Shown piece by piece: positions 706 through 50,742 of a stretch of 64,000 bases of DNA. The stretch is from assembly GCA_013239625.1 (NCBI GenBank), contig MU053881.1:62001-126000 (forward strand), in the 5' to 3' direction. Origin of the DNA: Lama guanicoe (lineage: Eukaryota). The notes under the pieces are model-generated. The model made no database searches and was not told where the DNA came from. It saw only the letters and a list, made by a program, of their open reading frames with translations. Numbering within the stretch: position 1 is the stretch's first letter; every line of letters starts with the position of its first letter. Both the position numbers and the translations under genes were made by a program.

Positions 706-37529
<36,824 letters not shown>

Positions 37530-47459: not shown

Positions 47460-47713
47460 GAGACCCCGCCGCCGAGAGGAAGTTCCTGAGACCTGGGAGG
47501 GGGGAGGGGGCTACAGTTCTCCCAGGACCCACTGGCCTGAGCAGGGAGTTGGCCAGGCCTCTGCGCATTAGCTGAGCAAACAGCGCATTTCTCAGGAGGA
47601 TGGGGTGAGGCCCAGCCCTGCAGAGAGGCAAAGACGGGGTATGTGAAGCCCACGGGCCCAGACCCTGGGAAGCGCGACTTTGGTTGTAGGAGCGTCGCTG
47701 AGCCCAGCCTGCC
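47460..47713 (+). promoter_or_regulatory. Relic SCGB3A1 proximal promoter
   Basis: AGAGGAAGT (ETS) at 47475, GAS-like TTCCTGAGA 47483 and TTCTCAGGA 47589, forkhead-like TGAGCAAACA 47573, degenerate TATA (TATGTGAAG, 47640) 74 nt upstream of the relic ATG. Confidence 0.55.
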
Positions 47714-48927
47714 ATGACGCTCCCAGCCGCCCTCCTGGTGCCCTGCGCGGCCCCGCTCGGCCGCTCTGGGGGGTGCGCTCAGGCCTTGCCCCCGGGCCCT
47801 CGCCGGGGGCCCCGGCAGCGGCTCTGCGCACCCCCCCTTCACCTCCAGCCAGTCCCGGCCCTGCTGCCTCCGCACCCTGGGCGCCAGCTCCTCACGCCCG
47901 CCCCTTCGGTGCCCTGGAGAAACCAGACCACGAAGCTGCTCGTCGCCTCCTAGGGCTCCCCATCCCCCTGGGCAGGAAGGCCTGCTCCTCCCGAGGCCGC
48001 CGAGGTCCCCTGGGGCGCGCCCTACCCGAGCCCTCGGGCTTCCCTTCACGCCCCCGCGAGCCCAGCCTCCCTGCTTCGTGCACCGGCAGCGGGCTCTCCC
48101 GCCCCCAGGCTGGCGCGCGGGCCTCCGTCTGCGGGCTCCTCAGCTCCGCCCCACCCTTGGAGACACAGCCCCGCCTCCTCGGGGCCCGGGGCCGGACGAG
48201 CAGGGCTCCTCCGCTGGTGCTACCGTTGCTGCTTCTTCCCAGACGCAGCGGCCCCGCCCGAGGTCCCGCCTGCGGCTGACCTCGCCCCTGTTGCGGAGGC
48301 CGGGCTGGGGCCTCGGCCAAGCCCTTCCTCAAAGGCTCCAGCCCCCTGAAGTGCATGCCGGCCCGTCTGGGAATCCCGGTGGAGCATCTCGTGGAAAGCG
48401 GGCGGCTGAGCTGGGCCCCGAGGCCATGGGGGCCCTGCCGGCAATGTGGGGCCCTGCGCACCTCCCTGCCGGGCGGTGGGGTCCTCCCCAGCCATCCTCC
48501 TGAAAAATGGAAACACTCTACTCCCTAGAGCCTTTAAGAGCGTCCTGGCCCGGCCGGGAGAGCTCATTTCCCGCCCCCAGGTGGCCCTGGGCAGGAGCTC
48601 GGCTGATCACACCTGCAGGGCGGGGGGCTGCGGAGGGCCGGGGGAAGGGGGAGGTGCTGGCCATCCCGTCACGAGGGTGCTGCCCGGGCTTGCCTCAGCC
48701 GGGAGCAGGGGCACGACCAGCCGGGAACCCTCCCTGCCCGGGGTCCCTGGGTGCCTGGGGCCCTGCCTCGCTCTCCCGCTGACCGTGGGGTGGGGGTGGG
48801 GGGACGACACTCAAGCTCGGCTTCTCCTTTCCGGGGGCCCAGCGTTCTTTGGCTGAGCTGAGGCTGGAGCATCGCTGCCTAAAGACGAGATGCTGCCGCC
48901 CAGCGCTGTCCCCGCTCTCTCAGTAAA
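47714..48927 (+). pseudogene. SCGB3A1: SCGB3A1 (secretoglobin 3A1 / HIN-1 / UGRP2) unitary pseudogene, three-exon relic
   Basis: Syntenic slot between FLT4 and CNOT6; exon 1 MTLPAALLVPCAAPLGRS (47714-47768); exon 2 pieces FFPDAAAPPEVPPAADLAPVAEAG / AKPFLKGSSPLKCMPARLGIPVEHLVES / AAELGPEAMGAL in three different frames (~48226-48445); exon 3 ..AFFG* (TGA 48854-48856); AGTAAA at 48922. Confidence 0.88.
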
Positions 48928-50742
48928 AACGGGTAAGAGCAGCTTTGCGGTGATGTTTTCTCACCAGATGCCCCTCCCGTTCCTCCCCCTGCTGTGAGCA
49001 ACAGAGCCGAAGGAAGAGGGCCTCAAATGGGCGTAAAGTTGGGTTGGTCCCTGCCCCTACAAGGAAATCAACTCAATATTCTGAAAACAATTTTTTTTAA
49101 AAGAATGCTTATCATTTTGAAATATGAACTGAAATATTTACAGATGAAATGATACATCTGGACTTTGCTTTGAAATAACCCAGAGTGTGCACAAGAGGTG
49201 GGCTAGCTGAAACAGGATTAGCTATGTACTGATAACCAAAATTTGGTGATGGGTGAATCAAATTCATTCAGTTGTTCTCTGCACTTTGGCATATGTTGGA
49301 AATATTTCAAAATAGAAAGTTAAAAAAAAGATTAAAAGAAAAGTGACAGAATATATGCAACACACGAATCTGATTAAAGGACACTGAGTGTGTAAAGAAC
49401 TATGTGTCAATCAGAAAACGACAAGAGGTATCTGAATGGCAAAACCAAAAAACAAAACAAATAACAACCCTTTTATTAATAAGGGAAACCCAGACTGAAA
49501 ACCACAATAAACTATCATTACACTTACCAGACCGTCAAACATTAAAAATCAGACAAAAACAAGCTTTGGCAAAGTTGTGGAATAATGAAAAAAAAAAATC
49601 TCCTAAACTGCTGGTAGGAGAGTAAATGGGAACAAGCACTCTAAACAGAGTTAAGCTTACCTAGTAGGTCAAATGCATGCGTGCGCTGCCACCTCGCAGC
49701 TCCAACCCTCAACCCGGGCTTGCCTCAGCCGGGAGCAGGGGCACGACCAGCCGGGAACCCTCCCTGCCCGGGGTCCCTGGGTGCCTGGGGCCCTGCCTCG
49801 CTCTCCCGCTGACCGTGGGGTGGGGGTGGGGGGACGACACTCAAGCTCGGCTTCTCCTTTCCGGGGGCCCAGCGTTCTTTGGCTGAGCTGAGGCTGGAGC
49901 ATCGCTGCCTAAGGACGAGATGCTGCCGCCCAGCGCTGTCCCCGCTCTCTCAGTAAAAACGGGTAAGAGCAGCTTTGCGGTGATGTTTTCTCACCAGATG
50001 CCCCTCCCGTTCCTCCCCCTGCTGTGAGCAACAGAGCCGAAGGAAGAGGGCCTCAAATGGGCGTAAAGTTGGGTTGGTCCCTGCCCCTACAAGGAAATCA
50101 ACTCAATATTCTGAAAACAATTTTTTTTAAAAGAATGCTTATCATTTTGAAATATGAACTGAAATATTTACAGATGAAATGATACATCTGGACTTTGCTT
50201 TGAAATAACCCAGAGTGTGCACAAGAGGTGGGCTAGCTGAAACAGGATTAGCTATGTACTGATAACCAAAATTTGGTGATGGGTGAATCAAATTCATTCA
50301 GTTGTTCTCTGCACTTTGGCATATGTTGGAAATATTTCAAAATAGAAAGTTAAAAAAAAGATTAAAAGAAAAGTGACAGAATATATGCAACACACGAATC
50401 TGATTAAAGGACACTGAGTGTGTAAAGAACTATGTGTCAATCAGAAAACGACAAGAGGTATCTGAATGGCAAAACCAAAAAACAAAACAAATAACAACCC
50501 TTTTATTAATAAGGGAAACCCAGACTGAAAACCACAATAAACTATCATTACACTTACCAGACCGTCAAACATTAAAAATCAGACAAAAACAAGCTTTGGC
50601 AAAGTTGTGGAATAATGAAAAAAAAAAATCTCCTAAACTGCTGGTAGGAGAGTAAATGGGAACAAGCACTCTAAACAGAGTTAAGCTTACCTAGTAGGTC
50701 AAATGCATGCGTGCGCTGCCACCTCGCAGCTCCAACCCTCAA
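48683..50742. repeat. Head-to-tail tandem duplication, 2 x 1030 bp
   Basis: 48683-49712 and 49713-50742 are identical by eye except A48883 vs G49913; the ORF track shows identical ORFs 1030 nt apart. Confidence 0.97.
49090..49712 (+). mobile_element. Ancient L1M 3' fragments (repeated at 50120-50742, continuing to ~51010)
   Basis: gaaatatttacagatgaaatgata..tctgggactttgctttgaaataa and ctgctggtaggagagtaaatggg..aagcactct resemble L1M 3' and ORF2-end motifs. Confidence 0.6.

Follow-up and report, generated by a model that had tools for sequence, protein, structure and literature searches.

The 64-kb stretch of contig MU053881.1 analysed here (the window) includes, at 47714–48856 on the plus strand, remnants of all three exons of a gene of the secretoglobin 3A (SCGB3A) family, in the right order and with the right spacing. 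The locus is very probably a unitary, unprocessed pseudogene of SCGB3A1 (HIN-1/UGRP2), lying in the ancestral position of that gene in a camelid-like mammal. The loss of the gene is old, is not an assembly error, and is an event of an ordinary kind.

A three-frame translation of 47640–48960 gave MTLPAALLVPCAAPLGRS after an ATG at 47714 and FFPDAAAPPEVPPAADLAPVAEAG starting at 48233. A shift by one frame leads to AKPFLKGSSPLKCMPARLGIPVEHLVES, which starts at 48316; the third frame contains AELGPEAMGAL, starting at 48405, and a peptide, ..GGPAFFG*, ends at 48856. All of the peptides quoted in an earlier sequence-only reading of the window, which had proposed an SCGB3A1 pseudogene, were found where that reading had placed them, and the window contains no N. 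The exon remnants are separated by intron-like gaps of ~456 nt and ~392 nt at the ancestral locus, and hence this is not a processed (retrotransposed) copy.

The fragments of the coding sequence were compared with Pfam, and three of the four match PF20490 (Secretoglobin 3A, SCGB3A), for which the curated cut-off is 27 bits. Segment 48316–48399 scores 28.8 bits (E 1.4e-6), segment 48280–48420 scores 30.3 bits (E 4.9e-7, profile positions 18–49), and segment 48402–48470 scores 13.9 bits (E 0.063, profile positions 53–65). The N-terminal fragment, 48233–48304, has no Pfam match, as expected for the variable part of the protein. Orthologues were collected by a profile search of 1.84 billion representatives, which gave 60 matches at E≤0.001, with ten clusters named; the SCGB3A1 proteins found are those of Muntiacus, Mesoplodon, Kogia, Eschrichtius, Balaenoptera, Rousettus, Neovison, Meles, Ceratotherium, Saccopteryx and Hipposideros, together with Cervus. 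When 21 SCGB3A1-type proteins were aligned to the whole window by tblastn, exon 2 was the place of the best high-scoring segment pair (HSP) for 20 of them, at up to 60.1 bits (E ~4e-14), compared with 20–27 bits elsewhere in the window. Only P0165, a repeat-rich protein with an internal repeat, behaved otherwise. Identity of the locus to the Cervus model reaches 71% over 48 columns. The proposed homology to SCGB3A1 is thus upheld by the alignments.

The two members of the family were separated by several measures. Two camelid SCGB3A2 proteins score only 25.0 and 25.8 bits at the locus. An exon 2 read-through, with X placed at the breaks, scores 85.2 bits on a hidden Markov model (HMM) of SCGB3A1 but 27.8 bits on one of SCGB3A2, each model being built from 16 sequences. 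In a maximum-likelihood tree of 12 + 12 sequences, the same read-through falls on the SCGB3A1 side of a 100/100 split. Its position inside the SCGB3A1 clade is not resolved, and its terminal branch is the longest of that clade (0.44, compared with a median of 0.11). As judged by profile score, tree and the synteny given below, the locus is of the SCGB3A1 type and not SCGB3A2. A duplicate derived from SCGB3A2 was also considered as the origin of the remnant and was ruled out by the scores and the synteny.

The exon 2 fragment found no homologous protein at E≤10 in 5.8 billion sequences, but the fragment is too short for this to be evidence of absence, and it has no relative in the PDB. Searches with an SCGB3A2-like exon and with a profile gave only SCGB3A2 proteins among the matches listed, in the second of them the best 120 of 203. 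Separately, the segment 47020–47130 (+) aligns with the N-terminal 38 residues of the Muntiacus reevesi SCGB3A1 model (P0195) at 63% identity, with one stop and 44.7 bits. This is evidently a conserved upstream element, ~600–700 nt before the ATG, that was taken as an exon by a gene predictor.

Lesions were called against an alignment of 16 SCGB3A1 proteins, some of which are models that read through splice sites and so mark the positions of these sites. Pseudo-exon 2 (48225..48440, +) carries the SCGB3A core, and its reading frame passes from 2 to 1 to 0, in the translation as in the tblastn alignments. The first frameshift (48299..48305, +) lies between ..VAEA and (R)AGASAKPF and, codon by codon, fits the loss of 1 nt at ~48299–48305. 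At the second frameshift (48405..48406, +), ..HLVESGR ends at 48405 and AELGPE starts at 48405 in another frame, so that 8 nt lie between ..LVE and AELG where the orthologues have (G/S)SRKCVAELGPE. The net loss of 10 nt removes K-C-V and with it a Cys that is invariant in the orthologues (16/16). No Cys codon (TGY) is present in any frame at 48385–48420, and Pfam independently lacks profile positions 50–52 between the two frames (18–49, then 53–65). The three-frame exon 2 and the ~10-nt deletion of the conserved Cys, both central to the sequence-only reading, were therefore recovered.

Further changes affect the 3' end of exon 2. Whale models read ..GALKALL|VMWAPS where the window has ..GALP|AMWGPA, which points to an in-frame loss of ~3 codons (K-A-L), and the donor at 48441–48442 is GC in place of GT, in the context CCG|GCAATGTGG (48438..48442, +). 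This comparison is drawn from models that read through the donor, namely Mesoplodon (..KALLVMWAPS) and Kogia (..KALLVM). At the other end of the exon (48223..48242, +), comparison with the N-termini of the orthologues and with the acceptor of the SCGB3A2-like genes of the same genome places the acceptor at 48223–48224, where the bases are CC. An in-frame cryptic AG occurs 18 nt downstream, at 48241–48242, after a good polypyrimidine tract, and the acceptor homologous to it (cccag) appears to be used in the Muntiacus muntjak model P0181. Hence, the acceptor that had been reported missing is indeed absent from its expected place, but this lesion has to be regarded as soft because of the alternative AG.

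Pseudo-exon 1 (47714..47768, +) consists of an ATG, 18 codons and 1 nt, and encodes a decayed signal peptide, MTLPAALLVPCAAPLGRS, in which Thr replaces Lys2 and two prolines lie in the hydrophobic core. The homology of this exon by itself is weak, with tblastn HSPs of 18 bits (E 3.5–8) in which 53–56% of the residues match the N-termini (MKL..) of Meles, Neovison and P0171. Its assignment is backed by its position, by the ATG, and by a GT donor exactly 55 nt past the ATG in a diverged relative described below. The length of 55 nt agrees with the gene structure given in the available part of a secretoglobin survey (PMC11884772), in which exon 1 of Scgb3a genes has 55 nt and is followed by a phase-1 intron. 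Other than the GT of the relative, the boundaries of intron 1 (phase 1) and intron 2 (phase 0) are those inferred from protein models. In the window, the exon 1 donor (47769..47770, +) is GG for the expected GT, as 47769–47774 reads GGGGGT. A candidate decayed TATA box, TATGTGAAG (47640..47648, +), is located 66 nt upstream of the ATG and is identical in the contig of the relative.

The coding part of pseudo-exon 3 (48833..48856, +), GGPAFFG plus TGA, comprises seven codons that align with GALTFFG* of the orthologues, and rhinoceros models that include read-through of the 3' untranslated region align at 35.8–38.1 bits. The bases before it (48831..48832, +) are CC and not AG. At the position of the poly(A) signal (48922..48927, +) the hexamer is AGTAAA. 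The rhinoceros protein ..SIKTDKSSF, set against ..SVKTGKSSF in the window, fits a change of AATAAA to AGTAAA, although here the evidence is from protein only. The signal-core prolines, the GGGGGT at the exon 1 donor, the missing AG of exon 3 and the AGTAAA had all been pointed out before, and each was seen in the sequence.

Alternative splicing does not restore the protein. The combination of 31 GT/GC donors, 9 AG acceptors, 20 donors and 6 acceptors gave 33,480 arrangements, which yielded 12,138 distinct three-exon open reading frames (ORFs). The best of these scored 52.5 bits on the SCGB3A1 HMM, compared with 108.4–165.9 bits for the orthologues, and none of the 12,138 held both halves of the SCGB3A domain. 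An uninterrupted frame with a signal peptide, the SCGB3A core and the invariant Cys, as expected of a functional gene, is thus lacking at the locus.

The age and the reality of the lesions were judged from a diverged relative. An RNA-library run of this organism gave two contigs, in the 90–95% identity class, that cover 47500–47840 and 48126–48558, and 30 of ~762 aligned positions (~4%) differ from the window. The relative has the same three-frame layout of exon 2: none of the three lesions of this exon shows an indel relative to the window, and a Cys codon is again absent. It also has the same GC donor of exon 2, CCG|GCAATGTG, with the adjoining in-frame loss identical. The occurrence of the exon 2 lesions in independent contigs of a diverged relative shows that they are real and not sequencing errors, and since they are common to the window and the relative, the loss predates the split of the two lineages. 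For exon 2, the earlier claim of an old and real loss therefore stands, given the same deletions and the same GC donor. In exon 1, the relative has T at 47770, hence an intact donor, G|GTGGGT, together with Lys2 and Phe7 (the peptide being MKLPAAFLVPCAAPLGRS). The changes in exon 1 are therefore younger and specific to the lineage of the window; a less likely explanation is that these single bases are errors of the assembly. The acceptor of exon 3 lies outside the contigs of the relative.

Within exons 1 and 2, 8 differences were found between the relative and the window in ~271 nt, and all of them (8/8) are nonsynonymous, while the divergence of the exons is within the range of the flanks. 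Eight amino-acid-changing differences out of eight are expected in the absence of purifying selection, though the numbers are small. The loss had been called lineage-specific. In favour of this, the lesions are shared by two lineages ~4% apart whereas 16/16 non-camelid models keep both the frame and the Cys; the scope of the statement is that of protein models, and only one relative was compared for shared lesions.

If instead the gene were intact in the animal, the frameshifts and splice changes would be errors of a fragmented short-read assembly in GC-rich DNA. The locus is indeed GC-rich (~0.58–0.59 per 2 kb, with still higher values in intron 1), it is followed directly 3' by an exact tandem duplication of 1030 bp that looks suspicious, no usable contigs came from the DNA runs, and no run exceeded 0.93 of the sampled words. 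However, both frameshifts, the missing Cys and the GC donor recur in the independently assembled contigs of another organism. In addition, 14 public DNA runs, listed under five organism codes and from at least six studies, hold 0.91–0.93 of 147 31-mers sampled from 47600–48960, and many radical coding substitutions, such as the prolines of the signal core and PLKCMP, stand beside the indels. An origin of the lesions in assembly errors is therefore regarded as highly improbable.

The tandem duplication has a unit of 1030 bp (48683..50742, +) and consists of copies at 48683–49712 and 49713–50742 that differ by a single mismatch (48883 A and 49913 G), with no microhomology at the edges. By this duplication, second copies of pseudo-exon 3 (49863–49886) and of AGTAAA (49952–49957) are present. 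It could be either a very recent duplication or an assembly artefact.

The gene order at the locus is that of the ancestral slot. Upstream on the plus strand, at 14.9–30.4 kb, Pfam identified VEGFR-type immunoglobulin (Ig) domains and tyrosine-kinase exons (14861..30350), and one of the Ig exons matches the VEGFR-3 structure 4bsk_A at E 3.8e-44, compared with 3.7e-6 for VEGFR-1. As judged from these matches, the upstream same-strand gene is FLT4 (VEGFR-3). The last 13 kb of the window (50.7–64 kb) showed no relevant CNOT6 coding match among 143 ORFs; this part is AT-rich, with a GC content of 0.33–0.44, and is probably the 3' untranslated region of CNOT6 and intergenic DNA. The next 40 kb of the contig contain, on the minus strand, an Exo_endo_phos exon 2.7 kb past the end of the window (L015:2722–2970) and a leucine-rich repeat (LRR) exon identified by Pfam 16.8–17.1 kb past it (L016:6797–7147). 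The nuclease exon matches CNOT6 (7ax1_A) at E 5e-34 and CNOT6L at 2.5e-29. The resulting order, FLT4 (+), SCGB3A1 remnant (+) and CNOT6 (−), matches the arrangement in human and mouse, where SCGB3A1 lies downstream of FLT4 on the same strand and CNOT6 is convergent. The slot between FLT4 and CNOT6, on the strand of FLT4, is the one assigned to the gene in the sequence-only reading. In the intergenic region between FLT4 and the remnant, the segment 41229–41489 (+) weakly resembles a DDE_5 transposase (22.5 bits, under the cut-off of 27) and probably derives from an old transposon.

The assembly was further searched for an intact copy. When the 2.05-Gb assembly was scanned in six frames with PF20490, 9 candidates were scored and three loci exceeded the cut-off. 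Two of these are on contig C1176 (102.8 and 98.7 bits), and the third is the locus in the window (28.1 bits). With a full-length Balaenoptera SCGB3A1 as the query against the whole assembly, these three loci were recovered, and no others below E 1. A second SCGB3A1 copy was thus not found in the 55,231 contigs of the assembly by a search that scores the best candidates only, and the absence of an intact copy, on which the proposed gene loss depended, is supported by both the family profile and a full-length orthologue. The remnant accordingly has the features of a unitary pseudogene: no intact copy was found elsewhere, the locus is not processed, and its lesions are shared with a relative.

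The pair on C1176 is of the SCGB3A2 type, the best named match being 'SCGB3A2-like' of Vicugna pacos (93%). The two genes, L001 (G000:C1176:3574276–3577476, −) and L002 (G000:C1176:3595896–3599096, +), are inverted relative to each other at a distance of 21.6 kb and share 97.7% identity over 2668 bp. Exons 1–3 are intact in each of them, which answers the earlier suggestion that the integrity of SCGB3A2 be checked. The SCGB3A2 of Camelus dromedarius (P0018) has no near-identical locus in the assembly, the best identity being 67–68%. Camelids may therefore carry more than one type of SCGB3A2, or the assembly may lack one of them.

These searches also bear on the possibility that the remnant is a decayed duplicate, with a functional SCGB3A1 relocated to another place or hidden in a gap of the assembly. 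The fragmentation of the assembly and the missing counterpart of P0018, which indicates either gaps or lineage differences, leave a place for such a gene. Nevertheless, the remnant occupies the ancestral slot with its introns in place, the searches with PF20490 and with full-length SCGB3A1 gave only this locus and the two SCGB3A2-like genes, and the accessible part of the survey PMC11884772 lists one SCGB3A gene in dromedary, compared with two in human, mouse and rat. A relocated working gene would thus be most improbable.

A different question is whether the locus, with its protein lost, has been kept as a transcribed non-coding RNA, as the source of a short truncated peptide, or as regulatory DNA of FLT4 or CNOT6. 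Six RNA or possibly-RNA runs from 3 studies hold 0.06–0.10 of the sampled words, and the RNA library of the relative gave contigs over the promoter with exon 1 and over exon 2. The ATG and the 18 codons at the start are open in both lineages, and a mustelid read-through model can still be aligned, as protein, with parts of intron 2. However, the contigs of the relative follow the genome without joints and extend over promoter and intron, as either genomic DNA or unspliced RNA could. The segment 46000–51500 has no match to any Rfam family, and no Pfam family besides SCGB3A was found in 8 long ORFs on both strands. The exons diverge like the flanks (8 of ~271 nt), and all 8 changes are nonsynonymous. 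A retained role of this kind is unlikely.

The alignment in intron 2 (48470–48552, +) is with a model from Neovison that runs on past the donor of exon 2, and it sets ..PSQPPIEWKHPFPKRL beside ..PSHPPEKWKHSTP*SL. This suggests a conserved intronic element or an isoform with a retained intron in other mammals.

Several points weigh against the interpretation of the locus as an old SCGB3A1 pseudogene. Three DNA runs yielded only scraps of 18–21 nt, so that the state of the donor of exon 1 (47770), of Lys2 and of the acceptor of exon 3 is known from the assembly only. The ceiling of 0.93 on shared words is compatible with a few wrong sites in the assembly, and its fragmentation into 55,231 contigs leaves some room for a copy hidden in a gap. 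The lesions of the exon 2 acceptor, the GC donor and the AGTAAA are soft; GC can serve as a donor in some cases, and AGTAAA, though weak, can work as a signal. The ancestral splice sites were placed with the help of protein models, including some that run on into introns, rather than from genomic DNA of orthologues. The relative would belong to a different camelid lineage, as inferred from its divergence only. Transcription of the locus may persist, given that an RNA library was the source of the contigs of the relative.

Some features of the remnant are found outside camelids. The cervid models (P0172, P0181 and P0195), compared at window positions 47741–47743 and 48343–48399, share with it radical substitutions at sites that are conserved elsewhere: Pro for Leu within the signal core, PLKCMP for PLKF(I/M)L, and HLVES for HLVEG. 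The orthologues from whales, carnivores, bats and rhinoceros do not have the signal-core proline, PLKCMP or HLVES. The cervid models have aberrant ends, and a canonical MKL.. signal exon 1 is missing from 4/4 whale models. That cervids and camelids have these features in common does not fit easily with the accepted artiodactyl tree, except through parallel changes or an early relaxation. A doubtful but possible extension is that the decay of SCGB3A1 began across even-toed ungulates and whales, with constraint relaxed in the stem and the frameshifts making camelids the obvious case. SCGB3A2-like duplicates would then have taken over the airway role; the diversity invoked for this takeover comprises the two genes found here (97.7% alike) and a third type in Camelus.

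For the SCGB3A1 pseudogene itself, the sequences show that exon 2 was disabled by the 1-nt and the net 10-nt deletions, with two shifts of frame and loss of the invariant Cys, and that these deletions, like the in-frame loss and the change of GT to GC at its donor, preceded the split from the ~4% diverged relative. The locus would later have drifted neutrally. In the lineage of the window, the donor of exon 1 would then have decayed from GT to GG and Lys2 would have been replaced, with the exon 3 acceptor now apparently reduced to CC and the poly(A) hexamer presumably to a weak variant. As no SCGB3A1 protein could be made, the airway secretory cells of these animals would be without it. Speculatively, the two intact SCGB3A2-like paralogues may fill part of its role.

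No report of an evolutionary loss of SCGB3A1 was found among the papers listed by full-text searches. Large comparative gene-loss resources may already flag the locus. The count of one SCGB3A gene in dromedary versus two in human, rat and mouse (Table 1 of PMC11884772) is consistent with a loss of SCGB3A1; a pseudogene is unmentioned in the portion of that text available, which also echoes the airway and tumour-suppressor background of the gene. In the accessible parts of PMC2291036 and PMC5957422, SCGB3A1 is cited only in passing.

Like SCGB3A1 of other mammals, the remnant belongs to PF20490 and to the same subfamily, has FLT4 and CNOT6 as neighbours, and apparently has the three-exon layout with a 55-nt exon 1. 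It differs from them in having no ORF, two frameshifts in exon 2, a deleted invariant Cys, three of four splice sites that are non-canonical, and prolines in the signal core. SCGB3A2 (UGRP1) and the C1176 pair share the Pfam family and apparently the exon structure with the remnant, but the SCGB3A2-like pair is on another contig and has all exons intact. As in other mammalian unitary pseudogenes, a single-copy gene was disabled in place, lesions are shared by relatives, and later lesions were added. The mechanism is not unusual, and only the gene and the lineage are specific.

Camelids are natural upper-airway hosts of the coronavirus MERS-CoV, as stated in the part of PMC11929475 available, and this gives some practical interest to differences in camelid airway secretory proteins. 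For annotation, recognition of the pseudogene is useful, as it would keep gene predictors from forcing a model at the locus; otherwise the finding is not surprising, being one more unitary pseudogene. SCGB3A1 is a major secreted product of human and mouse airway secretory cells and a candidate tumour suppressor that is often silenced in cancers, and its physiological role is poorly defined. If true, an ancient natural knockout in a whole mammalian family would mean that SCGB3A1 is dispensable in some airways, and the knockout lineage would offer a comparative handle on its role through possible replacements such as the SCGB3A2-like duplicates.

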